DNA of 64,000 nucleotides from an uncultured Elusimicrobia bacterium. Its GTDB lineage: Bacteria; Elusimicrobiota; Elusimicrobia; 2-01-FULL-59-12. This document shows, piece after piece, positions 10,029-57,167 of this stretch (within the stretch, counting starts at the first letter, position 1; each line of letters begins with the position of its first letter). Location of the stretch: positions 9,894-73,893 of the forward strand of contig CAYTWA010000002.1 in the NCBI GenBank assembly GCA_964441955.1. The letters run 5' to 3'. The translations under genes were made by a program, and so were the position numbers. The notes beneath the pieces were generated by a model. The model was given only the letters and a program-made list of their open reading frames with translations, was not told the origin of the DNA and searched no databases.

Positions 10029-11182
10029 TGGTGGTGGACGATGAGGCCGACATGCGCATGGCGCTGCGACTCTTTCTTCAAAATAGCGGCCACGAAGTCG
10101 AAGAAGCGGAAAACGGCGAAGCCGCTTTGGCGAACCTTTCAAACGGTGCTTCTTACGATTTAGTTCTCATGGACATGCGCATGCCCGGGATGGACGGGCT
10201 CCAAACGCTGACGAAGCTGCGCGAAACGAAAAAAGATTTACCGGTGATCATGGTGACCGGCTACGGCAGCGTTGACCAAACAGCCGAAGTGCTCGAAAAA
10301 GGCGCCAACGGCTACATCACCAAGCCTTTCCAACACCAGGAATTGCAGGATGCCATGAGCCGAGTGGGCCTGGTATCGCAAGGAAGCGATGAAGCGAGTA
10401 AGCGTGTCAGCACAGACGGGACTAACTCGCCTAATCGCTCACTTGCTCACTCGCGCCGTTGGATAACGCTTGGCTCCGTCGCTCTTGCGATCATTGGTTT
10501 TAGCTGGCAGCGCGGATGGCTGACCAATGACGATTTTAAGCTGGCCTATTCCAACCCCGTCGACATGACCTGGAATGCAGGAAAACTCTGGGTGGGGGAT
10601 TGGTTTACACAATCCATTTATATTCACGACATCGCCAAATCGGGCGCACCCATTGTTAAAACCTATTATTTGCCCGATGTGCATGTGACTGGCGTGGCGG
10701 TGGCGGGGGATCGCCTCTACACCTCGGACTCCTGGGATAAGAAAATCCGCCGGCATAAAATGGACGAATACTTAACGATTGAGGCTGTCCTTCCCGCCCC
10801 GGGTCAAAATCCGACGAGCCTCTTTTTTGATGGGAAATATCTGTGGTCGATGGACTCGAAGGCCGCCCGAATTTATCAGCATCGCCTGGATGAAAAACTG
10901 ACTGTTGTGGCCGATTATAAAGCCCCGGGATCGGCGCCGGTCGGGTTTTTCAAAGATGAAAAGTTTGCCTGGGTGTCCGACAGTCAAACCCGCCGGCTTT
11001 ATAAGCTGCGTCTGGATGACCAATTAACGACACTCGAGTCCTATACGATTTCCGATCTGGAAGCTCGCCGCGAACCCCTGTCTTGTTTCCGCTGGATTAA
11101 CGGCAACCTTTGGTTTGCCCGCGACCGGCTCGGAACAATGTTCAAGCGAACCCCTCGCAGCCTAAAGCTAGCCGCGAAGTAA
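10016..11182 (+). CDS. Response regulator with N-terminal REC domain (D-D-...-K motifs: VVDDEADM, LVLMDMRMPGMDG, ITKPF), one predicted TM helix (WITLGSVALAIIGFSW) and a C-terminal ~230-aa domain of four to five ~42-aa repeats (..SDSWDKKIRRHKMD / ..MDSKAARIYQHRLD / ..SDSQTRRLYKLRLD) resembling beta-propeller blades
   Basis: Start ATG overlaps the stop of the giant kinase by 13 nt (translational coupling). The CheY-like receiver motifs are clear. The repeat periodicity was read from the sequence. Confidence 0.8.
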   Translation: MGRVMVVDDEADMRMALRLFLQNSGHEVEEAENGEAALANLSNGASYDLVLMDMRMPGMDGLQTLTKLRETKKDLPVIMVTGYGSVDQTAEVLEKGANGYITKPFQHQELQDAMSRVGLVSQGSDEASKRVSTDGTNSPNRSLAHSRRWITLGSVALAIIGFSWQRGWLTNDDFKLAYSNPVDMTWNAGKLWVGDWFTQSIYIHDIAKSGAPIVKTYYLPDVHVTGVAVAGDRLYTSDSWDKKIRRHKMDEYLTIEAVLPAPGQNPTSLFFDGKYLWSMDSKAARIYQHRLDEKLTVVADYKAPGSAPVGFFKDEKFAWVSDSQTRRLYKLRLDDQLTTLESYTISDLEARREPLSCFRWINGNLWFARDRLGTMFKRTPRSLKLAAK

Positions 11183-14849: not shown

Positions 14850-15641
14850 TTAGGAAGGATTCGAAATTTCGGCGTCGGATAACGACGGGAAGGTGAGGGT
14901 GACGGTGGTTCCTATTTTGGGGATGCTTTGGAACTGGGTTTGCGCGTGGTGCTGTTCGATGATGCGTGCGGCGAAGAAAAGCCCGAGGCCCACCCCGCCT
15001 GGTTTTGTGGTTTTAAAAAGGGTTTTCCCGGGCTTTGGGAGTTTAAGGCCCGGCCCGGTATCCCTAATGAGAATTTGGACGGACCCCTTATTCGTCACCT
15101 GCGTCGACAACGTCAGTGTTCCGCCGGGAGTCATGGCCTCGATGGCGTTGACCGCGTAATTAAGGACCGCCTGTTCTAAGAGCTCCGCTTGAAAGAAAAC
15201 GTCCGGGAGTTTGGCTTCTTGGTGTTTTTCAAAGTGCAGACCTTTACGTTTGCAAAGTTCCTCCGCGTAGTCGGCCGCCGCGTTGACCACCGGGTTGATG
15301 GATCCGCAGTTCATCGGCGGTTGTTCCCCTTTGGCATAAAGCAGTAAATGGCTGACGATGCGCGAAAGCTTTCCGGCGCTTCGTTCAATCAAATCCAACG
15401 GCTGACGCTGCTCCGGGAGCAGTCCTTTTTGCCCCCGCAGTAATTCGGTGGTCGTTTGAATGGTTTGAAGCGGGGAGCGGAATTGGTGAACGAAGCCAGC
15501 CACCATCCGCCCGAGTGTCTTCCATTTTTCAACTTCAAGAGCAGCGGCAGAGGGAGTGAGAGTCAAGGTAGATTTCTTTTTAAAAAAAATTCCTTGACAC
15601 CCTCTCCCTCTGCCCTTGCTCTTCACGGTGTGATTGCCCAT
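14850..15641 (-). CDS. Soluble, sensorless histidine kinase: HisKA (FVHQFRSPL) + HATPase_c (N-box AVNAIEAMTPGG, G1 IRDTGPGL, G2 GGVGLGLFFA). The N-terminus contains an in-frame palindromic element.
   Basis: Motifs are present in the translation. The start ATG at 15639-15641 overlaps the stop of the upstream cNMP-patatin gene by 1 nt. Confidence 0.8.
   Translation of the reverse strand: MGNHTVKSKGRGRGCQGIFFKKKSTLTLTPSAAALEVEKWKTLGRMVAGFVHQFRSPLQTIQTTTELLRGQKGLLPEQRQPLDLIERSAGKLSRIVSHLLLYAKGEQPPMNCGSINPVVNAAADYAEELCKRKGLHFEKHQEAKLPDVFFQAELLEQAVLNYAVNAIEAMTPGGTLTLSTQVTNKGSVQILIRDTGPGLKLPKPGKTLFKTTKPGGVGLGLFFAARIIEQHHAQTQFQSIPKIGTTVTLTFPSLSDAEISNPS
15547..15613. repeat. Palindromic element copy A: arms GCAGAGGGAGTGAGAGTCAAGG / CCTTGACACCCTCTCCCTCTGC, core TTTCTTTTTAAAAAAAA. 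Lies in-frame within the 5' end of the small HK gene on the - strand (encodes KSKGRGRGCQGIFFKKKSTLTLTPSAAA).
   Basis: 22-bp imperfect inverted repeat. No stop codons in the HK frame. Confidence 0.75.
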
Positions 15642-17641
15642 TAGTACGCCCGCAGCGAGATGCCCAGCGGTACTTTGCAGTGGTCCGAAAAAAACGGCAG
15701 CAGGCTCTTGATTTTAGGCAGCGCTTCTTCCGCGGCGACGATGCCGGACTTTAAAATGTCATCCGAGCGGTGAAACTCCGTCCAGTTGTAGTCGCGTAAA
15801 TCCGGGGCAATTACGATGTGGGCAATTTCGACGCGCGCCTGGGCGATTTCGTATTGCATGGTGTAGAGCATCTTGAAAAACACTTCGGCCATATTCGGCG
15901 CCTCGGGTACGAGCGGCAGTATTTTCCGGCGCCCGGGAATTTTGCGAAGGGATGGCTTGGCCGTGAGATTGACTGAAATCAAAATGTCTGCGCCCATGTT
16001 GGACACAATGGAGGTAGGAACCGGGTTGACGAGCCCGCCATCCACCAAATAACGATCCCCGTATTTAAAGGGTTGGAAAAGAATCGGCAAGGATGTCGAC
16101 GCGCGCACGGCGTCGGCCACGCGGCCTTCGCGTAAAACCACCTCCTGTCCCGTGCGAATGTCGGTCGCTACGGTGGCAAAGGGGATGCGGAGTTGGTCGA
16201 ATTCAACGGTGCCTAAAACGCTGCGCAAAAATCCCGAAAGCGTCTGGCCGGCCATAAACCCCGAGTGGGGAAATGTGAGATCCCCAAACATGTTTTTTAA
16301 AAGCCATTTTTTCGTAATGCTGCGTGAGATGTCTTCAATTTTTGAGGGGGAATGGCCGGCGCAAAAAAAAGATCCTAGGAGTGCGCCCATGGACGTCCCG
16401 GCAACCACATCGATGGGAATGCCTTCCCGTTCAAAAATTTTGAGAATCCCCACGAGCGTATAACCAAACGCGGCCCCCGACCCCATGGCCAGGCCGACTC
16501 GCAGTTTGCCGAGTGCGCGCGCCACGCGTTCCAAGGCTTCAATGGCGGAGCCGCCCTGGTCGTGGGTTAAGTAGGGGGTCCCGGTGGCACGAAAAGGCTG
16601 ATGAAACGCTTCGCTCCAGGGGACGCGAAAATTGGCTTTAAAAGCGTTGCGGGACGAGGGATGGTGCAGATAAACCGTCGTAAACGGCACGGTTTCGTTA
16701 TCGGCCAACATACGCAGACGAGGCAAAGAAGTGTCCGCCAGCTCAATGGCTTGGTCCCATACGATGCCTAACGCCCGGTCGGATTCGCGCATCAAGATTG
16801 GAATCAAATCGTCTTCTTCCGTGGGGCTAACCAAGAGGGCAAAATCGTAATGGTCCTTAAGCAAACCCAAGAGCGAGGGAACAACGCCCAGCAAATGCTC
16901 TTTGACCAATTTGGGGTGAAGCGACAGCACTTCAAGTCCGCTGGGATGAACGGTGATCACCTGCCTAAGCGCGTGGATGTCGAGGAAATCTTGCTCACGA
17001 AGCATCGCATCCATCGACATCGGAGGGTTTAAGCCCAACGAGCGCGCCATATCCCCGCTGCGTGCGGTCAAGTCGACCAAAATCACTTTGCGGCGCGTTT
17101 GCTCGACGAGGGCCATCGCCAAATTGACGGTGGACAGAATCAGCGCCTCGTGCGGAAGTGCGGGAAACACCATGATGCGCTGCGGTTCTTTCGGTTTGTC
17201 GTGCGGCGGATGAAAGGATACCGCCAGGCGTTTGGACAGGGCGCGCGAAAGGTGAATGCCCACCAGCGGATGCGCTTCCAAAATTTGATCGAACTCGGAT
17301 TTTCCCAACGTCAATAGTTCGCAGGCGGTATCGGCCACCGCGCTAAAAGGATAGGGCTCTCCCGTTAAAAGCGAAAGTTCTCCCACGGCATCGCCTCGCC
17401 CTAAATACGCCACGGTGTTTTCTCCTTCCTTGCCAAACTGCGACGTGATACGGATGCGTCCAGACTTGATTAGAAAGAGCGCTTGGCCGGGGTCTCCTTC
17501 GCGCAAGATGGTGGCGCTGCGGTCGATTGTCAAGGACTGAAGCTTGCCGACGAGTTCCATGAGCACATCGTCCCCTAGAGGACTAAAGAGGGGGTTGCGT
17601 TTTAGAAAATACAATCCATCGCTGCGGTTCTGGCTATCCAC
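15641..17641 (-). CDS. Cyclic-nucleotide-binding domain (..GELSLLTGEPYPFSAVA) fused to a patatin-like phospholipase (GTSMG nucleophile elbow, DGG catalytic Asp motif YLVDGGLVNPVP). Bacterial NTE-like lipase.
   Basis: cNMP-binding and patatin GxSxG/DGG signatures read in the translation. Confidence 0.85.
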   Translation of the reverse strand: MDSQNRSDGLYFLKRNPLFSPLGDDVLMELVGKLQSLTIDRSATILREGDPGQALFLIKSGRIRITSQFGKEGENTVAYLGRGDAVGELSLLTGEPYPFSAVADTACELLTLGKSEFDQILEAHPLVGIHLSRALSKRLAVSFHPPHDKPKEPQRIMVFPALPHEALILSTVNLAMALVEQTRRKVILVDLTARSGDMARSLGLNPPMSMDAMLREQDFLDIHALRQVITVHPSGLEVLSLHPKLVKEHLLGVVPSLLGLLKDHYDFALLVSPTEEDDLIPILMRESDRALGIVWDQAIELADTSLPRLRMLADNETVPFTTVYLHHPSSRNAFKANFRVPWSEAFHQPFRATGTPYLTHDQGGSAIEALERVARALGKLRVGLAMGSGAAFGYTLVGILKIFEREGIPIDVVAGTSMGALLGSFFCAGHSPSKIEDISRSITKKWLLKNMFGDLTFPHSGFMAGQTLSGFLRSVLGTVEFDQLRIPFATVATDIRTGQEVVLREGRVADAVRASTSLPILFQPFKYGDRYLVDGGLVNPVPTSIVSNMGADILISVNLTAKPSLRKIPGRRKILPLVPEAPNMAEVFFKMLYTMQYEIAQARVEIAHIVIAPDLRDYNWTEFHRSDDILKSGIVAAEEALPKIKSLLPFFSDHCKVPLGISLRAY

Positions 17642-17666
17642 GGGGGGCCTCGCTATAATCCGCCGG

Positions 17667-18965
17667 ATGAAATTTCAATCGATCCGCGGCACCAAAGACA
17701 TGCTGCCCGCCTTTGCCTTGGGGGCTGCGGCCGGCGGTCCCTCCGACGCCGAGGCCGCTCAGCGATTGGAAAGCGGCGCGCGCGAAGTCTTTCGCCGTTT
17801 TGGTTTTCATGAAATTCGCACACCCACGTTTGAAGCTCTCGAATTGTTCCAGCGCTCGCTGGGCGAAACCACCGATGTCGTGCAAAAAGAAATGTATGCG
17901 TTTGAGGACCGCGGGGGCCGAAAACTAGCCCTGCGACCTGAAGGTACGGCGGGAGTCGTACGCGCTTTCATCGAGCATCATTTATCTCAAACGGCTCCAT
18001 TTTGCAAGCTGTTTTACATAGGCGCTATGTTTCGAGCCGAGCGCCCGCAAGCGGGTCGCTACCGAGAGTTTTGGCAGGTGGGGGCGGAAGCTTTCGGCAA
18101 CGCCGCCCCGGCAGCTGACGCCGAAATGCTCTTGATGCTGCAATCGCTGTTTGAGGCCTTGGGGCTTCAAAACATAGTTTTAAAAATCAACAGTTTGGGC
18201 GACAGTGCCTGTCGGCCGCAGTACCTTGAGGCGCTCAAGATCTATCTGCAAAGCAAAGCCTCCAGTCTCTGTGACGATTGTCAGCGCCGTATCGATAAAA
18301 ACCCGTTGCGCGCGTTAGACTGCAAAGTCGATGGGCAGAAGCTGCTCGACGCCCCTTTGATCGACCACTTCTGGTGTGAGCCGTGCCGCGCGCACTTCGA
18401 CCGAGTTAAAACCTATTTGGATGAGTCGAGGGGGCGCTATGAGGTGGTCCCTCGTCTGGTGCGGGGTCTTGATTATTATTCGCGGACCGTTTTTGAAGTC
18501 ACGTCTTCCGATTTGGGGGCTCAAGACGCTTTAGCGGCGGGGGGGCGTTACGATAAGCTCGTCAAAAATCTGGGTGGTCCGGATGTGCCGGCGATTGGTT
18601 TTGCGATGGGGTTGGAACGGGCGCTTGAAGCGATTAAAAAGTCAGGATCGGTGTCGGGACCAGAACCAAGGCACAAGGTGTTTGTCTGGGTGGCTGCGAT
18701 GGGTGAACGTCCGTCGGCCAAAGCGTTTGGGGTGCTGCAAGCGTTGCGCCGCGAGGGGGTTTCCGCCGATGGGGGATTCTTTGAAAAAAAGCTTGGGGCG
18801 CAGCTTCAAATCGCCGATAAAATCGGCGCGACCCACTGCGTCATTATCGGGGACGATGAAGTCAGTAAAGATGCCGCTACCGTTCGCTCCCTTAAAACCA
18901 GCACTCAAGAAAGTGTGGATTTTTCAAAGCTTTCAGGATATTTCCAGACCCTGTTGAATGCTTAA
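17667..18965 (+). CDS. hisS: Histidyl-tRNA synthetase
   Basis: Class II aaRS HisRS motifs (MKFQSIRGTKDMLP..., ...LRPEGTAGVVRAF..., GGGRYD). The start was moved to the ATG at 17667, because the track ORF from 17544 is an N-terminal over-extension. Confidence 0.9.
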   Translation: MKFQSIRGTKDMLPAFALGAAAGGPSDAEAAQRLESGAREVFRRFGFHEIRTPTFEALELFQRSLGETTDVVQKEMYAFEDRGGRKLALRPEGTAGVVRAFIEHHLSQTAPFCKLFYIGAMFRAERPQAGRYREFWQVGAEAFGNAAPAADAEMLLMLQSLFEALGLQNIVLKINSLGDSACRPQYLEALKIYLQSKASSLCDDCQRRIDKNPLRALDCKVDGQKLLDAPLIDHFWCEPCRAHFDRVKTYLDESRGRYEVVPRLVRGLDYYSRTVFEVTSSDLGAQDALAAGGRYDKLVKNLGGPDVPAIGFAMGLERALEAIKKSGSVSGPEPRHKVFVWVAAMGERPSAKAFGVLQALRREGVSADGGFFEKKLGAQLQIADKIGATHCVIIGDDEVSKDAATVRSLKTSTQESVDFSKLSGYFQTLLNA

Positions 18966-20997
18966 AACTCACTGGATCAGCCTCGCGCTCGCATTGATGG
19001 TTGGCGGCGCGCTGGCCGGCATGGAGTATCAACGCAACGCGGTGTATGTCGATCGCCGTGTTCATTCCACCGCCAAAATTTCGACTTTGGCTGAAACCAT
19101 GCAGCGTCTGGAATGGGCCGCGCTGGATGGACGTTTTAAAATCCGCGGTGCGCGTCAACCGCATCCCGACGTTGTGATCATCGGGATCGATGAGGGGTCG
19201 TTAGAAGAGGTTGGCGAATGGCCTTGGCCGCGCAGCATTCATGCCCGCCTGATTGATGTTCTAAAAAAAGAACCCCCGAAAGCTCTCCTCTTCGACATAT
19301 TGTTTTTAGAACCCTTTACGGCTCATCTCGAAGGGGATAAAGCGCTGATTCGTGCCACGAAAGAAAACCCCTGGGTGGTTCACAGCATGTTTTTAAACGT
19401 GAGCGATTCGGGGGTTCAAGGCGGCAAACTACCCATGAAAGCCTTGGCCGAGGCCGCTGGCCGAATTGGTTCCGTCAATGCGTTTCCTGACGATGACGGC
19501 GTGCTGCGCAGTGCGCCGCCTTGGATCAAACTAGACGATGTAGAAGTGCCTTTGTTATCTCTCGAGGGAGCAGCGCTTTACGGGGGCCTTACCCCCGCCC
19601 AAGTGGTCGATCGGATGCCCTTGGACGGGCGCGGCGAGCTTTTGGTTCAGTACGCGGGGCCCGAACATTCGTTTCGCTATTTGCCGTATTCCGATGTGCT
19701 CCGCGGCCAGGTGTCGGCCGAAGCGTGGCGCAACAAAGTGGTGTTGGTGGGCTCGCGTGCCACGGGGACGTACGATCACTACCCCACACCGCTTTCCAAA
19801 AACATGCCGGGGGTGGAGTTTCACGCCAACATAATTGACAACCTAATCAGCCGGTCGGCGCTGCGCTACCGGGGGGGTGCATGGACGACGGGAATCATCT
19901 TAGGGTTGTGCCTCTTTTCGGGAATTCTATTCGCTCGAGTCAAGCCGCTCTCCGGGGCGGTGGGGGTGCTCCTCTCTGGAGCGCTTTATTTTGGAGTGAC
20001 GCAGGTGCTTTTTACAAAACAGTTCATCGTTTTGGATTTGGCCGGGCCGGAAATGGCGCTTGGGTTGTCGTACCTGGTGATTGTCATCTACCGGTTTTTT
20101 GCCGAAGAGCGCGAAAAGCGGTGGGTCAAAGCCGCCTTCGGCCAGTACGTGTCGCCCAAAGTGCTGGATGTCTTGATGGCAAACCCCGAGGGACTCCATT
20201 TAGGGGGTGAACGTCATGACATGACGGTTTTTTTCTCCGATGTCGCGGGGTTCACGTCGATTTCAGAGCGGATGACTCCCGATGCGCTGGTGGTGCTACT
20301 CAACCGCTATTTGTCGGCTATGACCGAAGTAGTCTTTAAATACGACGGCTATTTAAACAAGTACATGGGCGATGGCATTATGGCGTTTTGGAACGCGCCC
20401 GTGAAACAGGCCGACCACGCCGAGCGGGCCTGTCGCTGCGCGCTCGAAAGTCGCACGGCTTTAGAGACCCTCAACCGGGAATTGGTGTCCCAGGGGTTTG
20501 TGCCCTTGGCGGCTCGCATTGGAATTAATTCCGGCACGATGGCTGTAGGAAACATGGGGTCACGCCAAAAATCAGACTACACCGTCATGGGTGACAACGT
20601 GAACTTGGCATCTCGCTTGGAGGGCGCCAACAAAGCCTACGGCAGTTCCATCATGATCAGCGAATTTACCTATGAAATGGTGCAGGACAAGTTTGAGGCC
20701 CGCTACCTGGACCGTTTGCGCGTTCCCGGGAAAGCCAAACCCGTGCGCACGTACGAGCTTTTGGCCGAAAAAGGCGCGTTAACGGCCGATTGGCAAAAAG
20801 CCATGGGGATATACCACGAAGCCATTCTGGCGTATGCCGAACGCGACTTCGAAAAAGCCCGTAATAAATTCCTTGAAGTTCAGCACATTTTGCCTCAGGA
20901 TAAACCCAGTGCCGTTTACGTGGCGCGGTGTGAGGCCTTTTTGGCTCACCCCCCGGAAAAAGATTGGGATGGCGTTTTCGAGGTAAAGTCGAAATAA
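18958..20997 (+). CDS. CHASE2 sensor domain (WPWPR signature) + TM region + class III adenylate/guanylate cyclase (FSDVAGFTSISE...YMGDGIMAFWNAP) + C-terminal TPR-like tail
   Basis: Domain signatures in the translation. Overlaps the hisS stop by 8 nt. Confidence 0.85.
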   Translation: MLKTHWISLALALMVGGALAGMEYQRNAVYVDRRVHSTAKISTLAETMQRLEWAALDGRFKIRGARQPHPDVVIIGIDEGSLEEVGEWPWPRSIHARLIDVLKKEPPKALLFDILFLEPFTAHLEGDKALIRATKENPWVVHSMFLNVSDSGVQGGKLPMKALAEAAGRIGSVNAFPDDDGVLRSAPPWIKLDDVEVPLLSLEGAALYGGLTPAQVVDRMPLDGRGELLVQYAGPEHSFRYLPYSDVLRGQVSAEAWRNKVVLVGSRATGTYDHYPTPLSKNMPGVEFHANIIDNLISRSALRYRGGAWTTGIILGLCLFSGILFARVKPLSGAVGVLLSGALYFGVTQVLFTKQFIVLDLAGPEMALGLSYLVIVIYRFFAEEREKRWVKAAFGQYVSPKVLDVLMANPEGLHLGGERHDMTVFFSDVAGFTSISERMTPDALVVLLNRYLSAMTEVVFKYDGYLNKYMGDGIMAFWNAPVKQADHAERACRCALESRTALETLNRELVSQGFVPLAARIGINSGTMAVGNMGSRQKSDYTVMGDNVNLASRLEGANKAYGSSIMISEFTYEMVQDKFEARYLDRLRVPGKAKPVRTYELLAEKGALTADWQKAMGIYHEAILAYAERDFEKARNKFLEVQHILPQDKPSAVYVARCEAFLAHPPEKDWDGVFEVKSK

Positions 20998-21004
20998 AAC
21001 GAAT

Positions 21005-36653: not shown

Positions 36654-36966
36654 AAAAAGATCAGCGGCGGGTGGCCAGCGAGGCGGGAATGGCCAGTACG
36701 GCCGCGTTAGGAACTCTGTTTAAATAAATCACCATTCGCCGTCGTTTTGGCCATTCCCGCCGTATGGGTCCCCCGCTTTTGACGGCCGTGACCATGATCG
36801 TTTTGGAACTCTTTAGAGGGACGGGCCCGCAGGAACCCTGCTTGAATTGAGCAACCATTGCCGTTTGAGGGTTTACGGCGTGGTCGTGATCCAAGCGTTT
36901 GATCATCGAAAGTGGAACCTAGGGAAAATATTCCCGGGGACTGGGTCTGATAAAATAGCGGCCTGG

Positions 36967-39900
36967 ATGAAACCGAAATTCCACCTTAAACACGATGCAT
37001 TTGTGATTGAAAATTATCACGCGTCCCGGCCGTTTGCGGGGTTTTTGCCGGGGATTGCAGGCGAGTACGGCAAGCCGATGTGGGTGTTTACGACGAACCG
37101 CGGTCAGGGCATCTCCAGCTTTGGAATTCGCAACAAAAACGCGGCGATGCTCGAGTTTTACCCCGCCAACAAAGCCTATACCATGACGCCGATCACCGGT
37201 TTTCGCACTTTCGTTCGGCTTCAGGAAGGCAAAAAAGTGTCTATTAACGAACCTTTTCGCCCGCATGCCCTAGAAAGCGTGCGGCAGGTCATGCGTGTGC
37301 GGCCCCATGAGTTAGAAATCGAAGAAGTCAATCACGCGAACCGAATCGAGATTCGCGTCGTCTACTTTACAGCGCCCAATGAAACACTCCCGCTTTTGGT
37401 GCGGCGCGTGACGGTCAAAAACCTCGCGTCTAAAACCCGCCGCATGGATATCCTCGATGGTTTGCCGCAGGTCGTGCCGTTTGGGCTGAGCGAATTTTTG
37501 CTTAAAAGCATGTCGCGGACGATGGAGGCCTTTTCCGAAACCCTTCATACGGATGAGCATTTGCCTTTTTTCAAAATGAAGGTGGAGCCTTCCGATCGTC
37601 CGGAAATGGAACGTATTGATGGCGGTTTTTTTGCCTTTACGCTCCAAAACCGGCAACCCATTCGGCTGGCGGTGGACGCCCAAGGTGTCTTCGGCGCGGA
37701 CACGAGCTTCGGGTATCCCTCCGTGTGGGCCGCTTCGGGCCGCCTGTCGCGTCACGAGCAAACCGAATCCACCACCGCCTGTGCTTTTGCCTGTCTTTCG
37801 TTTGCGCTGCCCGCCCAAGGCGAGCAAACGTTCACGTCGTATTTTGGCCAGGCGAATCATTGGGAAGAAGCTTTGGCGCTTCGCCGCCGGGTTCAAGAGT
37901 CCGCGGCATACGCCGAAACAAAACGCGCCGAAAACGCCGCCACCCTCCAACAATTAACCGACCCATTTGCCATCCATTCTTCCCAGAAACGCTTAGACCC
38001 TTATTCCCGCCAAGCGTTTTTAGATAACACGCTGCGTGGCGGACAACCGCGCGTCGACAAAACCCATGGTCATGCCAGCGTGTTTCACTATTACACCCGC
38101 AAACACGGGGACATGGAGCGCGATTACAACGCATTCGAGGTGGCCCCCACTTATTTTTCGCAGGGAAACGGCAATTTTCGTGATGTGAACCAAAATCGTC
38201 GCTGCGAACCTTTTTTGTTTCCAGGGGTGGGCGCCGACAGCCTGCAGACATTTTTTAACTTAATCCAGTTGGACGGTTTTAATCCGCTCGTCATCCAATA
38301 CGAGACGTTTGTGGTGCGGCCGGAAAAATTAAACAGCCTGAAAACGCTGCTCGACCACTTGGGGTGGGACTCTTGGAAATTGTTTCTCACGCAGCCTTTT
38401 AAACCCGGCGTCCTCTATGAACGGTTATGGACGGGGCATGGGCAAGTTCAGGAATCGGCCCAGGAGAGTTTCGAACGGATCCTCACTGTCGCGGAGAAAA
38501 CGCAAGAAGCCGCCCATGGGGAAGGCTTTTGGGTGGACCACTGGATTTATAACCTCGACTTGTTGGAATCCTTTGCCGCTGTTTACCCCGATCAACTGAA
38601 GGCCGTTTTAACCGAGGCCCACTCCTCCACCTATTTCGATAACGACCACGTGGTGCAGCCGCGCCAGCGTAAAACCATTCTTCGTCACGATGGGCGGGTG
38701 CGGCAGATGAACGCCGTGATTCGCGATACCGAAAAAGCATCCCTCCTTAAAGCACGTAAAACCGACCCTTTTAAAGTGCGAACCCAATACGGCGAGGGGG
38801 AAATTTATCGGACCTCGCTTTTGGCCAAACTGGTTGGTTTGTTTGCGGTAAAAGCAGCTTCCTTAGATCCCTTTGGTGTCGGGTTGGAAATGGAAGCGGA
38901 TAAGCCCGGGTGGTGTGATGCGCTAAACGGTCTTCCGGGGCTTTTTGGTTCTTCCGTCAACGAAGCCTTGGCGCTGCGCCGCGGGGTTGGCTTTCTCCAA
39001 GAGCGTCTCCCTTCCCTCTTAAGCGACAGGGAGACGCTCCAACTTCCCGTGGAAGTGGCCGATTTTGTTCGTGATGTGAAAGATGCTTTAAGTGGGGCAA
39101 GCGGCCCTCTTTTTTATCGCACTTGGGATGCTTTGTCGTCCCGTAAGGAAGCGTTTCGTGAACGCACGCGGCTCGGGGTAAGCGGCGAGGAAGCAGTCTT
39201 ATCGCTCAAAGACCTGCAGGCGTTTTTAGGCAGCGTCCAGCAAACGCTCGACCGGGGGCTTTTGCATGCCGTGACAAAAGACGGGCTCGTCACCACGTAT
39301 TACATAAACGAAGTGGATGAGTACGAAAAGCTGCCGCCCATTCACTCCGACGCGAGTGGAACCGAGGCCAAATCCCTGCAGGCGGTACGCGCCATGCGCT
39401 TTAAGCAAACGCCCGTGGTCCCTTTTTTGGAGGGGCCCATGCACGCCCTGCGCTTGGCTTCGCCCCAAGAGGCGCGCGCGCTTTATTCCGCGGTTCGGGG
39501 CTCTTCTCTTTACGACAAAAAGTTGGGCATGTATCGCCTCAATACGCCCTTAGACAGCGAAAGTTTTGAAATCGGCCGGGCCAAAATTTTTACGCCGGGA
39601 TGGCTTGAAAACGAATCGATATTTCTGCACATGCACTACAAATTTTTGCTTGAAACGCTTCGCAGCGGTCTGCACGCCGAATTTTTCAAGGACTTTAAAA
39701 AAGGGCTCGTGGCCTTTCAAGACCCGGCGGTGTACGGCCGTTCCGTTTACGAAAACAGCTCTTTTATTGCCTCGAGTCGTTTTCCGGATGCGCGGCTGCA
39801 CGGCAATGGGTTTGTCGCGCGGTTAAGCGGTGCGACGGCCGAGTGGATTTCGATGGTGATCTACATGGGCCTTGGGGCCAAACCCTTTGAATGGGTTAAA

Positions 39901-40197
39901 GGAGAGCTTCGATTTTCTCCGGCGCCCGTTTTAGCCGGATGGTTGTTTGAGGCAAAGCCTGTCGATGGGTTTGAAAAAGACACCTTCGGATTCAAAGTGT
40001 TCGGCGGAACATGGATCGTGTACCGAAACCCAGGCCGGCGCGACACCTATGCGGGAAAAGGGCTGGCTCCTAGCAGCTACCGGTTAGTCGCGCGGGATGG
40101 CCGAGAAGAGGTTGTCGAAGGCCGCTTTTTAAACGGCCGTTTGGCGCACGATTTGCGCGAGGGCCGGCTGGCGCGTGTCACCATTCATTTGGCATGA
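36967..40197 (+). CDS. Large (~1,076 aa) uncharacterised cytoplasmic protein. Possibly a six-hairpin glycoside hydrolase/phosphorylase-like enzyme (low-confidence guess).
   Basis: Start reassigned to ATG 36967 (the track ORF from 36847 spans a 300-nt leader). No motif was recognised with confidence. Confidence 0.5.
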   Translation: MKPKFHLKHDAFVIENYHASRPFAGFLPGIAGEYGKPMWVFTTNRGQGISSFGIRNKNAAMLEFYPANKAYTMTPITGFRTFVRLQEGKKVSINEPFRPHALESVRQVMRVRPHELEIEEVNHANRIEIRVVYFTAPNETLPLLVRRVTVKNLASKTRRMDILDGLPQVVPFGLSEFLLKSMSRTMEAFSETLHTDEHLPFFKMKVEPSDRPEMERIDGGFFAFTLQNRQPIRLAVDAQGVFGADTSFGYPSVWAASGRLSRHEQTESTTACAFACLSFALPAQGEQTFTSYFGQANHWEEALALRRRVQESAAYAETKRAENAATLQQLTDPFAIHSSQKRLDPYSRQAFLDNTLRGGQPRVDKTHGHASVFHYYTRKHGDMERDYNAFEVAPTYFSQGNGNFRDVNQNRRCEPFLFPGVGADSLQTFFNLIQLDGFNPLVIQYETFVVRPEKLNSLKTLLDHLGWDSWKLFLTQPFKPGVLYERLWTGHGQVQESAQESFERILTVAEKTQEAAHGEGFWVDHWIYNLDLLESFAAVYPDQLKAVLTEAHSSTYFDNDHVVQPRQRKTILRHDGRVRQMNAVIRDTEKASLLKARKTDPFKVRTQYGEGEIYRTSLLAKLVGLFAVKAASLDPFGVGLEMEADKPGWCDALNGLPGLFGSSVNEALALRRGVGFLQERLPSLLSDRETLQLPVEVADFVRDVKDALSGASGPLFYRTWDALSSRKEAFRERTRLGVSGEEAVLSLKDLQAFLGSVQQTLDRGLLHAVTKDGLVTTYYINEVDEYEKLPPIHSDASGTEAKSLQAVRAMRFKQTPVVPFLEGPMHALRLASPQEARALYSAVRGSSLYDKKLGMYRLNTPLDSESFEIGRAKIFTPGWLENESIFLHMHYKFLLETLRSGLHAEFFKDFKKGLVAFQDPAVYGRSVYENSSFIASSRFPDARLHGNGFVARLSGATAEWISMVIYMGLGAKPFEWVKGELRFSPAPVLAGWLFEAKPVDGFEKDTFGFKVFGGTWIVYRNPGRRDTYAGKGLAPSSYRLVARDGREEVVEGRFLNGRLAHDLREGRLARVTIHLA

Positions 40198-41354
40198 GGC
40201 GGTGGCAGCGTTTCGGTATTCTTTTTTTGCCCCTTTTTTTTCCGCTTGCTTTGCTTCAGGCGCAAAAAGAGGTTCCTGTTTTGCGTGCGTATTATGAAGA
40301 AACCCTCTATATCGCGATTGCCCAAGCGGCTCGGCTCCTGAAAGGGGCCGTGTCATGGCGGGCGACGTCGGAGCAGGTGGAACTTCGCGTGCGCGGCCAT
40401 TCTTTTCGTTTTTTTTATGATTCCCCGCTCGTGTTGGTGGATGGAAAGCGAAAAATGCTGGAACGTCAAACGATTAATAATGCAGAAGGCTTTTGGGTTC
40501 CGGCACGCTTTTTTGCGGATGACGCGTTTTTTGCGCTGACCCATGCGAGGCTGGAGTTGCCTACAAAAGCAGTGGGAGAGGGAGTGGGAGTTAAGGAAGT
40601 CTTTATTAAAAAAGGAAATACCTCGACTGCCACTCCCTCTCCCTCTGCCGTGTCTTCACGCGCGATTCGCCGCATCGTCATTGACCCCGGCCATGGGGGA
40701 AAAGACCCGGGCGCCGAAGGGCCGCGCGGAGTGTTCGAAAAAAGTATCACCTTGGCGTTAAGCCAAGAAACCGCCGAGTTGCTTCGCGAAAAAGGCGATT
40801 ACGAAGTACTCATGACGCGCATGGACGACACCTTTGTCCCGCTCGCCGAGCGCGCCCGTTTAGCCAACCGTCACGAGGCGGATTTGTTTATTTCCATTCA
40901 TTGCAACGCGTCCACGTCGTCAAAACTTCAAGGGTTTGAGGTGTATTTCCTCTCCGAAAAAGCTTCCGACCCGCGCGCGGACGCCGCCGCGCGTTTTGAA
41001 AACGCGCCGCTTGCCTTGGAAGGACAAAGCGTCCCCGCCCCGAACCCGCTCAATCGCGTGCTTCGCTCATTAGTGAAAACAGCTAACATCAACGAATCAT
41101 CGGAGATGGGCGCTCTCCTGCATCAAAAATTAAGCCGTCAAATTTCGAGTGAAGCACTTGGCGTCAAGCAGGCGTCGTTTTATGTGCTGCGCGGCGCAGA
41201 AATGCCATCGGTGTTAATTGAGGTCGGATTTTTGACGAACCCCCGCGAAGAAAAAATGCTGACCAAGCCGGCTTACCGGCACAAAATTGCCCAAGGCATC
41301 TTCGAAGCGGTTCAAGCGTATGACTTACGCAAACAAAAGGCGCGCGGCCGATGA
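40194..41354 (+). CDS. N-acetylmuramoyl-L-alanine amidase, AmiC-like (N-terminal AMIN domain + Amidase_3 catalytic domain: IDPGHGG...EADLFISIHCNA). The linker carries an in-frame palindromic element.
   Basis: Amidase_3 motifs present. ATGA overlap with the upstream gene. Confidence 0.8.
   Translation: MRRWQRFGILFLPLFFPLALLQAQKEVPVLRAYYEETLYIAIAQAARLLKGAVSWRATSEQVELRVRGHSFRFFYDSPLVLVDGKRKMLERQTINNAEGFWVPARFFADDAFFALTHARLELPTKAVGEGVGVKEVFIKKGNTSTATPSPSAVSSRAIRRIVIDPGHGGKDPGAEGPRGVFEKSITLALSQETAELLREKGDYEVLMTRMDDTFVPLAERARLANRHEADLFISIHCNASTSSKLQGFEVYFLSEKASDPRADAAARFENAPLALEGQSVPAPNPLNRVLRSLVKTANINESSEMGALLHQKLSRQISSEALGVKQASFYVLRGAEMPSVLIEVGFLTNPREEKMLTKPAYRHKIAQGIFEAVQAYDLRKQKARGR
40569..40648. 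repeat. Palindromic element copy B: arms GCAGTGGGAGAGGGAGTGGGAGT / ACTGCCACTCCCTCTCCCTCTGC, core TTTATTAAAAAA. Lies in-frame inside the amidase ORF (encodes AVGEGVGVKEVFIKKGNTSTATPSPSA).
   Basis: 23-bp near-perfect inverted repeat. Translated in the frame of ORF 40194..41354 without stops. Confidence 0.8.
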
Positions 41355-44920: not shown

Positions 44921-46305
44921 TGTTCAAGAAAATTCAGCACATCCATTTCGTTGGGATTGGCGGGTCCGGGATGTCGGGCATCGCGGAAGTGCTGCTGAGT
45001 TTAGGTTATAAAGTGTCCGGTTCCGATTTGAAAGGCAGTCCCGTCACCGAACGCTTGGCCAAGTTGGGTGCCCGGATCTGCGCCGGGCATAAAGCGGAGA
45101 ATGTTCAAGAGGCGCAGGTGGTCGTAACCTCCACCGCGGTTTCTCCAGATAACCCCGAAGTGATTCAAGCCCGGAAGTCCGGTGTTCCTGTTATTCCTCG
45201 CATTGAGATGCTGGCGGAAATTGCCCGGCTTAAATACACCGTGGCTGTCGCCGGTACCCACGGTAAAACCACGACCACGTCGATGGTGGCAAGCGTCCTG
45301 CAGTCGGGGGGACTTGATCCCACGGTGGTCGTGGGCGGAAAGCTTAAACATTTGGAGTCGGGGGCCCACTTGGGGAAAGGGGATTTTCTAGTCGCCGAAG
45401 CGGATGAGTCCGACGGGTCATTCCTTAAGCTTTCTCCGGCCATTGAAATCATCACCAATATCGATAACGACCATCTGGATTACTACGGCACGTTCAACAA
45501 TATCGTTGAAGCGTTCGTGCAGTATTCGGGGCGCGTGCCCTTTTATGGCTGCGTGATCGCCTGTCTCGATGACCCCCATGTGAAAAGCATCCTCTCGCGG
45601 ATGACGCGGCGCGTGTTGACCTATGGTTTTGACTCAGGCGCTCAGATTCGCGCCGACTCGCTGAAAACGGATGAGAGCGGATCCTCGTTTGAGGTGTTCG
45701 CGGGGGCAGCGCCTTTAGGCCCGGTTCGGCTTCAAGTGGCGGGGCGGCACAACGTATTGAATGCGTTGGCGTCGGTGGGTGTCGGGCTTGAGATTGGGAT
45801 TTCATTTACCAAGATCGCCGAAGGGCTGGCCGCCTTTGAAGGTGTCGGCCGCCGGATGGAAATAAAAGGTGAGACGGGGGGTGTCACGGTCGTGGACGAT
45901 TACGGCCACCATCCCACCGAGATCAAAGCCACGCTCGCGGCCCTTCGCGCGCGATACGCCGGACGACGAATTGTGGCCCTATTTCAGCCGCATCGTTTTA
46001 GTCGAACGCAGTCGTTATGGAAAGAGTTTTCCGAAAGCTTTAAAGAGGCGGACGTCGTTTATTTGCTGGATGTGTACCCGGCCGGGGAAGCGCCTATGGC
46101 GGGGGTAAGTTCCGCATTAATTTTAGAGCCGCTTAAGAAAAATCACCTTTCGGCCCACGCGTTGCCCTCGCCGCTTAATTTGTCTTCCGTGCAAAAAAAC
46201 CTTCGCCAAGGCGACGTAGTGATCACCTTGGGCGCGGGCGACGTGTGGAAGTGCGGCGATTTACTTCTGGCGAGTAAGAGAATAAGAGATGAAGTGAGGA
46301 AGTAA
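44920..46305 (+). CDS. murC: UDP-N-acetylmuramate--L-alanine ligase
   Basis: FVGIGGSGMSGIA..., GTHGKTTTTSM. Confidence 0.9.
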   Translation: MFKKIQHIHFVGIGGSGMSGIAEVLLSLGYKVSGSDLKGSPVTERLAKLGARICAGHKAENVQEAQVVVTSTAVSPDNPEVIQARKSGVPVIPRIEMLAEIARLKYTVAVAGTHGKTTTTSMVASVLQSGGLDPTVVVGGKLKHLESGAHLGKGDFLVAEADESDGSFLKLSPAIEIITNIDNDHLDYYGTFNNIVEAFVQYSGRVPFYGCVIACLDDPHVKSILSRMTRRVLTYGFDSGAQIRADSLKTDESGSSFEVFAGAAPLGPVRLQVAGRHNVLNALASVGVGLEIGISFTKIAEGLAAFEGVGRRMEIKGETGGVTVVDDYGHHPTEIKATLAALRARYAGRRIVALFQPHRFSRTQSLWKEFSESFKEADVVYLLDVYPAGEAPMAGVSSALILEPLKKNHLSAHALPSPLNLSSVQKNLRQGDVVITLGAGDVWKCGDLLLASKRIRDEVRK

Positions 46306-47225
46306 TGGTTCCTCCCACTCCATCTCCTCATCACTTACTCTTTCACTCTCTAAAAAGCGCCTGTCCTGGCGTGCGCGAACAAGAACCGCTCGCCAAGCGC
46401 ACCACGCTTCAAATCGGCGGCCCCGCCGATTTTTTTGCCGATGTCCAAACCGTTTCGGAACTAACCGCGCTGCGCCACGTGGTCGAAGCAAGTCTATTAC
46501 CCGTGTTTTTTTTGGGCGCGGGCTCTAATTTGCTTATTTCGGACAAAGGCATTCGCGGGCTTGTCCTTCATCTGGGGGGGGATTTTAAACGGGTGGACTT
46601 CCAGGAGTCGACACTCTCCGCCGGGGCTGGCGCCTTGATGCCGACGCTCGCCCGTCAAGCCGCGCAGCGAGGCCTTTCCGGCGTGGAATCACTGATCGGC
46701 GTGCCCGGCACCGTGGGCGGCGGTTTAGTGATGAATGCAGGCACGCGCGAAGGCTGGATCGGGGATGTGACGACCGAGATCGAAGCGCTTGCGGCCGGCG
46801 GCAAAATTCACACGATCAGCCGGGAGGACTGGGGCTTTTCCTACCGGCACTCGAAACTGGAAGGCCTTTGGATTACGGGCGCTACGCTCACGCTCAAAAA
46901 AGAAGACCCTATCGCGGTGCAAAAGAAAGTCGACGACCTTCTAGCCTATCGAACCAAAACCCAGCCGCTAACCACCTCCAATTGCGGTTCTGTCTTTAAA
47001 AATCCACCCGAAGGCGCGGCGGCTAAGTTTGTCGAAGAATGCGGCATGAAGGGGCAAGCCGTCGGTCGTGCGCGCGTATCCAACCGCCATGCCAATTTTA
47101 TTCTCAATGAAGGCGGCGCCACGGCGGCGGAGGTTCGCTCGCTGATCGATACGATCCAGATGAAAGTTCAAAAACAGTTCAACGTTTGCCTCGAACCCGA
47201 GGTGAAATTCGCAGGCGAGTGGTGA
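46305..47225 (+). CDS. murB: UDP-N-acetylenolpyruvoylglucosamine reductase
   Basis: FAD-binding ...TTLQIGGPADFF..GAGSNLL... Confidence 0.9.
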   Translation: MVPPTPSPHHLLFHSLKSACPGVREQEPLAKRTTLQIGGPADFFADVQTVSELTALRHVVEASLLPVFFLGAGSNLLISDKGIRGLVLHLGGDFKRVDFQESTLSAGAGALMPTLARQAAQRGLSGVESLIGVPGTVGGGLVMNAGTREGWIGDVTTEIEALAAGGKIHTISREDWGFSYRHSKLEGLWITGATLTLKKEDPIAVQKKVDDLLAYRTKTQPLTTSNCGSVFKNPPEGAAAKFVEECGMKGQAVGRARVSNRHANFILNEGGATAAEVRSLIDTIQMKVQKQFNVCLEPEVKFAGEW

Positions 47226-56009: not shown

Positions 56010-57086
56010 ATGGCTTCTTTAGAACATTTACGTCGTCAAATTGACCGCCTGGATGGCGCGCTTTTGGAACTATTAAACAAGCGCGGCCGCCTGGTCCAGC
56101 AAGTCGGCGCCGAAAAGGCGCGCAGGAACCAGTCCGTTTTCGCTCCCGGACGTGAACGGGATCTTCTCAGGCGGCTGAAAGATTTAAACCACGGGCCGCT
56201 GACCGCCGAGGCGGTCGATGCGGTGTTTCGCGAAGTCGTTTATGCCTGCCGCGCGCTTCAGAAAGATTTTAAGATCGCCTATTTCGGCCCGGAAGCGACC
56301 TTCACGCACCAAGCCGCCCTTCGGCAGTTCGGCCGCCGGGCGCACCTCGTGGCTTGCCGTACGATTTCCGATGTCTTTGTGGAAGTGGAAAAAGACCGGG
56401 CCGATTACGGGGTTGTCCCCATCGAAAATTCCACGGAAGGCATCGTGAACCACACGCTTGATATGTTTGTCGATTCGCGTTTGTCGATCTCAGCCGAGTT
56501 GGAGATGCCGATTCACCACTATCTCCTGGGCCGCGCCGTAGGCTACAAGAAAGGCCGCGGGGTTCGAACCCTTTATGTTTTTCCACAGGCCCTGGCCCAG
56601 TGCCGCGCCTGGGTCGAAGCTCATGTGCCTCACGCCAATGTTGTGGAAGCCTCTTCGACCGCCGAATCGGCACGCCTGGCGTCGAAAACACGGGGTGCGG
56701 CGGCGATTGCCTCGCGACTGGCGGCCGAGATGTACGGGTTAGATGTTTTAGAGTCGCGTATCGAAGATGTGTCCAGCAATTTCACGCGTTTCTTGGTGAT
56801 TGGAAAAAGCGAGCCGGCGCCTACCGGGCGTGATAAAACCACGGTGATGTTCTCCGTCAAAGATCGCGTGGGCGCCCTGCACGATATTTTGGTGCCGTTT
56901 AAGAAGTTGCGCTTAAACCTCACCAAAATCGAATCGCGTCCGACCCGGCAGCGCGCTTGGGAATACGTTTTCTTCGTTGACATCCTCGGCCACCGGGCCG
57001 AGCCGCGCATGCAAAAGGCTTTAGCGGAACTTGAGCGTTACTGCAGCTTTCTTAAAATTTTAGGGTCTTACCCTCGGACAGAATAG
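56010..57086 (+). CDS. pheA: Bifunctional chorismate mutase / prephenate dehydratase (CM_2 + PDT + ACT)
   Basis: Start at ATG 56010 (the track ORF 55656.. is over-extended across pgeF). ESRP and TRF motifs. Confidence 0.9.
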   Translation: MASLEHLRRQIDRLDGALLELLNKRGRLVQQVGAEKARRNQSVFAPGRERDLLRRLKDLNHGPLTAEAVDAVFREVVYACRALQKDFKIAYFGPEATFTHQAALRQFGRRAHLVACRTISDVFVEVEKDRADYGVVPIENSTEGIVNHTLDMFVDSRLSISAELEMPIHHYLLGRAVGYKKGRGVRTLYVFPQALAQCRAWVEAHVPHANVVEASSTAESARLASKTRGAAAIASRLAAEMYGLDVLESRIEDVSSNFTRFLVIGKSEPAPTGRDKTTVMFSVKDRVGALHDILVPFKKLRLNLTKIESRPTRQRAWEYVFFVDILGHRAEPRMQKALAELERYCSFLKILGSYPRTE

Positions 57087-57160
57087 AGAGGGGAAGGGAG
57101 TGGGAGTTCAGGAAATTTTTATTAAAAAAACATTCCTCGACTCCCACTCCCTCTACCACT
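57087..57160. repeat. Palindromic element copy C (intergenic): arms AGGGAGTGGGAGT (57095-57107) / ACTCCCACTCCCT (57140-57152) around an AT-rich core TTTTTATTAAAAAAA, followed by TGTTTTTT. Terminator-like.
   Basis: Perfect 13-bp inverted repeat read in the sequence. Related copies at 15547-15613 and 40569-40648. Confidence 0.8.
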
Positions 57161-57167
57161 GTTTTTT

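Follow-up and report, generated by a model that had tools for sequence, protein, structure and literature searches.

The window analyzed in our work (the whole stretch of 64,000 nucleotides) carries, within the reading frame of an N-acetylmuramoyl-L-alanine amidase, a palindromic sequence of about 80 bp. This arrangement raises the question as to whether the palindrome is an ordinary linker-encoding segment of the gene, or whether it represents a copy of a dispersed repeat that is read through and has become part of the protein.

A palindromic repeat is read through in the amidase frame

A sequence-only reading had placed a palindrome at positions 40569-40648, and this was borne out by the folding analysis. 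The sequence, designated copy B, is an imperfect palindrome in which two 28-nt arms, 86% complementary to each other, surround a 24-nt loop, and its RNA fold of -54.4 kcal/mol corresponds to a z-score of -8.3, with none of 200 dinucleotide shuffles being equally stable. When compared with shuffles that preserve the composition of each half, the z-score ranges from -8.4 to -8.9. Every arm of copy B is a string of GGGAGN hexamers, and the ends of the element are AGCAG...CTGC(C/T) (see Table 1 for the positions of all features).

A codon of the amidase ORF (40194..41354) begins at position 40569, and positions 40569-40649 specify 27 codons (126-152) that are free of stops. Their translation is AVGEGVGVKEVFIKKGNTSTATPSPSA, in agreement with the earlier claim of a stop-free read-through in the amidase frame. 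The element peptide is rich in G/E/V/K in its first half and in T/S/P/A in its second. Considering that nine of the 18 frames over the three copies of the repeat described below are open (four of six in the case of copy B), the lack of stops is weak evidence and read-through as such is unremarkable; what counts for read-through is a length that is a multiple of three, combined with a tolerant site in a linker. It had also been proposed that the symmetry of the palindrome explains the similar peptide encoded by copy A. This holds for the right arm, which in copy A (kinase frame) and copy B is read in the same frame to specify T-x-T-x-T-P-S, but not for the left arms, which are read in different frames, while the G-x-G pattern present in both peptides follows from the hexamer periodicity.

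Table 1 Repeat copies, amidase features and amidase linkers. Positions refer to the window, or to the respective locus for the linkers of related loci; z-scores of linkers are relative to shuffles preserving the composition of each half.
Feature	Positions	Strand	Remarks
Copy A of palindromic repeat	15540..15620 (palindrome spans 15530-15630)	-	nhmmer profile match
N-acetylmuramoyl-L-alanine amidase, 386 aa	40194..41354	+	same 386 aa protein in source annotation
N-terminal domain, residues about 30-120	40281..40553	+	Cu_amine_oxidN1-like fold; pLDDT about 90 or more
Copy B of palindromic repeat	about 40568..40649	+	nhmmer E about 1e-23, translation, RNA fold
Left arm, copy B	40569..40596	+	28-nt inverted repeat; purine-rich GGGAGN hexamers: GCAGT GGGAGA GGGAGT GGGAGT TAAGG
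A/T-rich loop, copy B	40597..40620	+	24 nt; codes for EVFIKKGN
Right arm, copy B	40621..40648	+	pyrimidine-rich; codes for TSTATPSPS
Amidase_3 catalytic domain, residues 161-374	40674..41315	+	PF01520 E = 3.4e-57
Copy C of palindromic repeat	57086..57163	+	nhmmer profile match
Window linker			z = -8.4; arms GGGAGAGGGAGTGGGAGT
L038 (P0001) linker	10412-10570		z = -3.7; arms GAGACGAGGGACAAGGGA
L039 (P0002) linker	10412-10582		z = -3.6 whole linker, -6.9 hairpin proper; unrelated GCCACTGTCGGGGTCCCATCAAC
L046 (P0007) linker	10421-10549		z = -3.35; arms GGGACGAGGGACGAGT
L043 (P0003) linker	2555-2674		z = -3.2; arms GGGAGAGGGGAGA
L044 linker			z = +0.5, without signal
L045 linker			z = +1.5, without signal
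L047 linker			z = -0.55, without signal

Three copies of the repeat are dispersed over the window

Scanning of the 64-kb window with an nhmmer profile of the three copies identified exactly three matches, each with an E value of about 1e-23 on both strands, the next match having an E value of 0.19, and a two-arm 24-base pattern was similarly found three times versus 0.00 expected. Copies A, B and C, which constitute the sole dispersed repeat family within the window, display a pairwise identity of 76-81%, possess inverted-repeat arms of 28-49 nt, and all form very stable folds. One compensatory pair (G-C versus C-G) distinguishes copy A from copy B.

Copy C occupies the whole spacer from the pheA stop codon (57084-57086) to the hisC ATG (57168), with a T6 run next to it. 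Mycobacterial MIRUs are direct repeats that fill short operon spacers, in contact with the stop and start codons on either side; copy C resembles these in filling the spacer between pheA and hisC, the difference being that a MIRU is not palindromic. Copy A corresponds to codons 8-34 of a called histidine-kinase ORF (14850..15641), or is part of a 5' leader instead if Met46 is the true start. Its assignment as coding or leader sequence is ambiguous, since several short kinase homologues begin at the equivalent of Met46, and since the closest histidine-kinase homologue is at most 32% identical. The copy A region is present at 100% identity in a separate ENA assembly.

With regard to coding status, copy B is thus certain, copy A ambiguous and copy C intergenic, the latter showing that the repeat sequence is no protein module. 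A search with nine concatenated open-frame peptides, which is of low sensitivity and blind to diverged copies, returned no further in-frame copies save that in the histidine kinase. The data support the view that copy B belongs to a dispersed family of palindromic repeats rather than being ordinary linker sequence.

The called histidine-kinase gene belongs to a signalling cluster (window 14850-21000) that codes, besides the kinase, which is short and sensor-less, for a patatin-like phospholipase with cNMP binding and for an adenylate/guanylate cyclase of the CHASE2 type; hisS is located between the genes of the latter two. The start codon (ATG) of the kinase gene shares bases with the TAA of the patatin/cNMP gene upstream of it. 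A giant ORF (3308 aa) elsewhere in the window, at 102-10028, harbors internal repeats at 981 bp spacing (families D3, D4 and D9).

The repeat family is lineage-restricted and non-autonomous

An exact-pattern search for the left-arm core in 185,579 species genomes (GTDB representatives) resulted in 36 scattered chance matches, none of which was palindromic or located in Rickettsia. The two-arm 24-base pattern retrieved one unrelated GC-rich hairpin from the JGI metagenome contigs, and nothing else, while the element was not found in IMG/VR. Rfam returned sub-threshold eukaryotic miRNA hairpin look-alikes only, with no matching family, and a Pfam scan of 23 window ORFs (of those downstream of the amidase, this set includes only pheA) revealed no transposase. 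Based on these distribution searches, and on the transposase and Rfam results, the repeat family is therefore lineage-restricted and non-autonomous.

A target-site duplication was sought across the three copies, and no combination of boundary and length yielded direct repeats matching at 80% or more. Such duplications may have eroded, as the copies are old (judging from their identity of 76-81%).

The host gene encodes an amidase with two intact domains

The amidase has a hydrophobic, signal-peptide-like N-terminus (as judged by eye), and its catalytic domain is nearest to AmiA/AmiC/AmiB of E. coli in a Foldseek comparison (8C2O, 4BIN). The description of the protein as an AmiC-type amidase with an AMIN domain, as given in the sequence-only reading, is correct with respect to the Amidase_3 domain, which is of the AmiA/B/C kind (PF01520, Foldseek), but not with respect to the N-terminal domain. 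The latter was without match to AMIN (PF11741) and yielded in Pfam just a sub-threshold match to Cu_amine_oxidN1 (PF07833; 22.3 bits versus a cut-off of 24.2), a family that is present in the amidase orthologues. In the Foldseek comparison, the match of this domain was the N-terminal domain of the copper amine oxidase of E. coli (1OAC), and its identification as AMIN was rejected in favor of a copper-amine-oxidase-N1-like fold.

Residues H167, E182, H236 and E343 are among the invariant columns of the orthologue alignment, and we take them to be the zinc ligands and the catalytic Glu of the amidase family. On this basis the amidase gene looks functional, and both domains that flank copy B are conserved and intact. 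Within Amidase_3, residues 256-330 (SEKASDPRADAAARFENAPLALEG...) are well conserved among the orthologues, yet have a pLDDT below 50. In the predicted model, this segment may correspond to the regulatory/autoinhibitory insert of AmiA/B/C-type amidases.

The amidase is preceded by a protein of approximately 1000-1100 aa without Pfam match, the stop codon of which overlaps the amidase start, and this applies to the window (36847-40197) as well as to the related loci L038, L039 and L045-L047, with L039 carrying two tandem paralogues. The spacer between this gene and a DUF2062 gene contains a GC-rich hairpin with 40-nt arms (36667-36776; -66.8 kcal/mol, z = -5.8), which occurs once in the window. 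In the protein database, 90% clustering has placed the amidase (P0153) under the unrelated 47-aa protein P0154, derived from a DUF2336-bearing JGI contig, and this clustering glitch, i.e. the 47-aa representative, makes the amidase invisible to the homologue search.

The element constitutes the linker between the two domains

For comparison, seven related loci were available in which the gene order is conserved, being the ~1100-aa protein, amidase, murI, PTPS and QueE, onward to murC, murB, ddl, ftsA and ftsZ. The best amidase orthologues are 59-63% identical to the amidase of the window.

The element had been proposed to add 27 aa to the linker between the domains. Its 27 codons are indeed located in the linker, but the linker is not longer than those of the orthologues, the element being the linker. 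In the window the linker comprises 33 aa, to which the element contributes 27, leaving approximately six non-element residues. The spacing from the GFWVP to the DPGHGG motif is 65 residues, compared to 49-96 (median 72) among 61 orthologues; when the element is subtracted, this spacing becomes 38, which is below that of every one of these 61 orthologues. The flanking sequences (LELP-TK ... VSSR-AIRRIV) align with those of the orthologues, for example with ...SPSSR-TIRRIV in P0001. The element therefore constitutes the linker, given that it supplies 27 of the 33 residues, that the spacing of 65 residues is normal, and that the flanks align. In the AlphaFold model, residues 127-151 are coil with a pLDDT below 50 between two confident domains. 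This disordered coil coincides exactly with the element, so that the location of the inserted peptide fits the fold of the host protein.

The linkers of the orthologues are hypervariable (24-56 aa), and most are composed of a charged or G-rich half followed by a P/S/T-rich half. The element peptide was found in none of 120 homologues, and no copy of the element was detected by the nhmmer profile in the syntenic loci L038, L039, L043 and L044 (the scan covered these four loci, with L045-L047 outside it). The alignment with orthologues, which had been put forward as a check on the insertion, thus gives a twofold result. The segment is not conserved, as expected for an insertion, but four of the seven orthologous linkers form palindromes of their own that differ in sequence, which places the outcome in a grey zone.

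Linkers of several related amidases also form hairpins

The DNA of each linker was folded, and the result was judged against shuffles in which the composition of each half is maintained, which controls for the codon pattern of a purine-rich followed by a pyrimidine-rich part. These shuffles, together with a calibration, were used instead of a ranking of sliding-window MFE values, which is confounded by GC content. Among 200 random 130-nt windows of the same loci, the z-score had a mean of -0.14, a standard deviation of 0.98 and a minimum of -2.61, so that none of the 200 reached -3. Four of the seven syntenic orthologous linkers are significantly hairpin-forming by this measure (z -3.2 to -3.7), with sequences unlike that of the window element.

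In a gapless inverted-repeat scan, the linker ranks first within its own locus in L038, L043, L044 and L046, and second in L039 and in the window, the top-ranked pair of L038 overlapping just the 3' end of the linker and reaching into the sequence encoding the catalytic domain. This ranking is inflated by the purine-then-pyrimidine composition, as is evident from L044, which ranks first though its z-score is +0.5.

No extra copies of the orthologue hairpins were found within the 9-21 kb flanks, with the exception of a 14-mer in L043, and copies are demonstrable only for the hairpin of the window. The 14-mer occurs both in the L043 linker and in a small CCCTCTCCC/GGGAGAGGG hairpin that is located beside an inserted DUF559 gene. 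In L043, this gene (4170-4648; nuclease-like, Pfam E = 8e-38) has its insertion site between murI and PTPS, and the flanking CCCTCTCCC-N-GGGAGAGGG hairpins are at positions 4196-4216 and 4601-4621. Another DUF559 gene is located before murC in L046 (15002-15298), near small GGGAGAGGG hairpins, whereas none is present in the window. The DUF559 nuclease is a possible candidate partner of the GGGAG-type palindromes.

The amidase linker thus looks like a recurrent landing site for palindromic DNA, or like a site that was anciently occupied and repeatedly renewed. Repeated colonization or renewal accounts for the data more easily than one ancient event, because the amidases are diverged and a neutral old hairpin should have decayed, and because copy B is still 76-81% identical to the copies elsewhere. 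A broader proposal, which we advance tentatively and regard as rather doubtful, is that the amidase linker of this clade is made and repeatedly renewed by selfish hairpins of the GGGAG/CTCCC type, which would provide its raw material in many lineages, or else that the hairpin is a conserved mRNA-level feature of the domain boundary.

The same observations bear on an alternative origin of copy B, in which the hairpin is an ancestral, selected mRNA or DNA feature of the clade's amidase, with copies A and C either being secondarily derived or sharing a function. Such a hairpin might act as a translational pause between domains, as an RNase III or stability site, or as a recombination-prone spacer. 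It would agree with the significant linker hairpin in five of eight genomes despite differing sequences, with the linker holding the strongest or second strongest inverted repeat in six of eight loci (gapless scan), with the charged/G-rich-then-P/S/T-rich order common to most orthologue linkers, and with the compensatory pair between copies A and B. However, three of the eight genomes are without a hairpin (z = +0.5, +1.5 and -0.55), including L044, a close relative of the hairpin-bearing L043, and copy B is 76-81% identical to two other copies that reside at unrelated loci, of which one is intergenic. Moreover, the rank statistic is inflated by composition, as indicated by L044, and covariation is minimal with three copies. 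A selected ancestral hairpin is for these reasons considered unlikely.

Two further palindromes are located at Mur gene junctions. In the window, a weaker palindrome (46265-46355; 39-nt arms ~72% complementary, z = -2.7) straddles the overlap of the murC stop and the murB start (TAATG, 46303-46307), with its purine-rich arm encoding the MurC tail (LASKRIRDEVRK) and its pyrimidine-rich arm the MurB N-terminus (MVPPTPSPHHLLF). In L043, a (GCGAGCA)n hairpin is found at the junction of a Mur-ligase gene and murB (8790-8845).

Origin of copy B

Copy B is probably a selfish palindromic repeat, similar to an RPE or a MITE, that was kept in frame within a disordered tether and now supplies that tether. 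In the sequence of events that we consider, copy B would be a member of a lineage-restricted, non-autonomous palindromic family of ~80 bp, with arms of GGGAGN hexamers and an A/T-rich loop, and would have entered the amidase gene at the one place where extra sequence is harmless, namely the tether between the putatively wall-binding N-terminal domain and Amidase_3. The survival of copy B in the gene is explained by its length of 3n (81 nt), by the stop-free frame of the host, and by a peptide that is flexible and linker-like. Over time, the element may then have come to make up the linker, with ~6 non-element residues left. As neither an empty site nor a target-site duplication was found, we infer, rather than observe, that copy B arrived by insertion, that ancestral linker codons were later lost or replaced, and that the peptide now is the spacer.

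A second alternative holds that all three copies have a regulatory function as palindromes, in the manner of REPs, terminators or mRNA stabilizers, and that copy B controls expression of the amidase. Such a role would be compatible with the very stable folds of all copies and with copy C, which takes up the spacer between two operon genes and has a T6 run behind it. A simple terminator scan and a promoter scan, in contrast, flagged no copy, copy B is located mid-gene without a T-run, and the Rfam matches are sub-threshold, miRNA-shaped hairpins only. The size of 80 bp and the absence of a GTAG/CGTC tag are, in addition, unlike REPs (PMC3733652). Regulation by this repeat family is accordingly regarded as improbable.

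It is scarcely credible that the element was placed in the amidase gene by an error of assembly or binning, through a repeat-induced chimaera: the source is a metagenome-assembled genome, in which repeats can cause misjoins, and no independent assembly was found over copy B (ENA contig L041, which carries murI, begins downstream of the element, and a search via the upstream 1076-aa protein found nothing on record), but the reading frame is exactly kept, the normal domain spacing needs the element, both flanks are syntenic with the orthologues, and copy A is exactly reproduced in a separate assembly.

Comparison with known repeats

The reading of copy B as a selfish repeat retained in frame can be related to several known systems. 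In-frame palindromes had been portrayed in the sequence-only reading as rare outside Rickettsia, which is overstated, since in-frame fusions of small repeats have been called not unusual (PMC10969869, PMC3184786). Host ORFs fused in frame to such repeats have been described for RPEs, ERIC, BOX, QMITEs and others (PMC10969869, PMC3184786, PMC5896051).

According to PMC10969869 and PMC3184786, RPEs (Ogata et al. 2000, 2002) are dispersed palindromes that are found in frame in housekeeping genes and are also intergenic. The element resembles RPEs in being a dispersed palindrome that specifies an in-frame peptide at a structurally permissive place and that has intergenic copies too. It differs in its length (~80 bp versus about 105-150 bp) and in its host, as Elusimicrobiota, the phylum to which the names of the amidase homologues point, is unrelated to Rickettsia, and a sequence relation was not found by the exact-pattern search. 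Of the three copies of the element in 64 kb, one is certain to be coding, where a large share of in-frame copies would be expected for RPEs. An RPE adds a surface loop, whereas the element replaces a linker.

Like the MITE-type repeats (intragenic ERIC, pneumococcal BOX, and Coxiella QMITE1/2; PMC10969869, PMC5896051), the element is small, non-autonomous, hairpin-forming and multi-copy, with an occasional in-frame fusion; it has ~80 bp without a transposase gene of its own, and inverted-repeat arms of 28-49 nt. It differs from MITEs in that no target-site duplication was detected, in that no cognate IS was identified among the 23 window ORFs, and in being palindromic over its whole length, whereas the palindromy of MITEs is limited to their terminal repeats. 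In addition, copy B is fused internally, unlike the QMITEs, which join functional genes at the 3' end. REPs, which are associated with RAYT transposases, are 20-40 bp, carry a GTAG/CGTC tag at one end and are extragenic (PMC3733652). The element shares with REPs and BIMEs that they are interspersed stable hairpins, often between operon genes as is copy C, and differs from them in being 80 bp long and tag-free, and in having one intragenic copy.

The kind of event is therefore known, being an RPE/MITE-like in-frame insertion, and it is the lineage that is new. What goes beyond the routine is the geometry of linker replacement, together with the recurrence of palindromes in the same linker of related genomes.

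Significance

With this finding, RPE-like 'coding palindromes' become known from a further phylum, which is free-living and poorly studied. The finding also provides a clean example in which a repeat is now a functional part of an enzyme of an essential pathway, i.e. the tether of a cell-division amidase, with the spacing of the domains unchanged. Such elements can mislead gene callers, clustering and alignments of linker regions.

If either version of the broader proposal were true, whether linkers renewed by selfish hairpins or a conserved feature of the domain boundary, it would explain why five of eight genomes have a significant palindrome, of differing sequence, at exactly this place and why most of the orthologue linkers are charged/G-rich and then P/S/T-rich. 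If the recurrence among orthologues is borne out, it would show that selfish hairpin DNA can build disordered linkers and cause their turnover, which would constitute a concrete route to new peptide sequence in bacteria.
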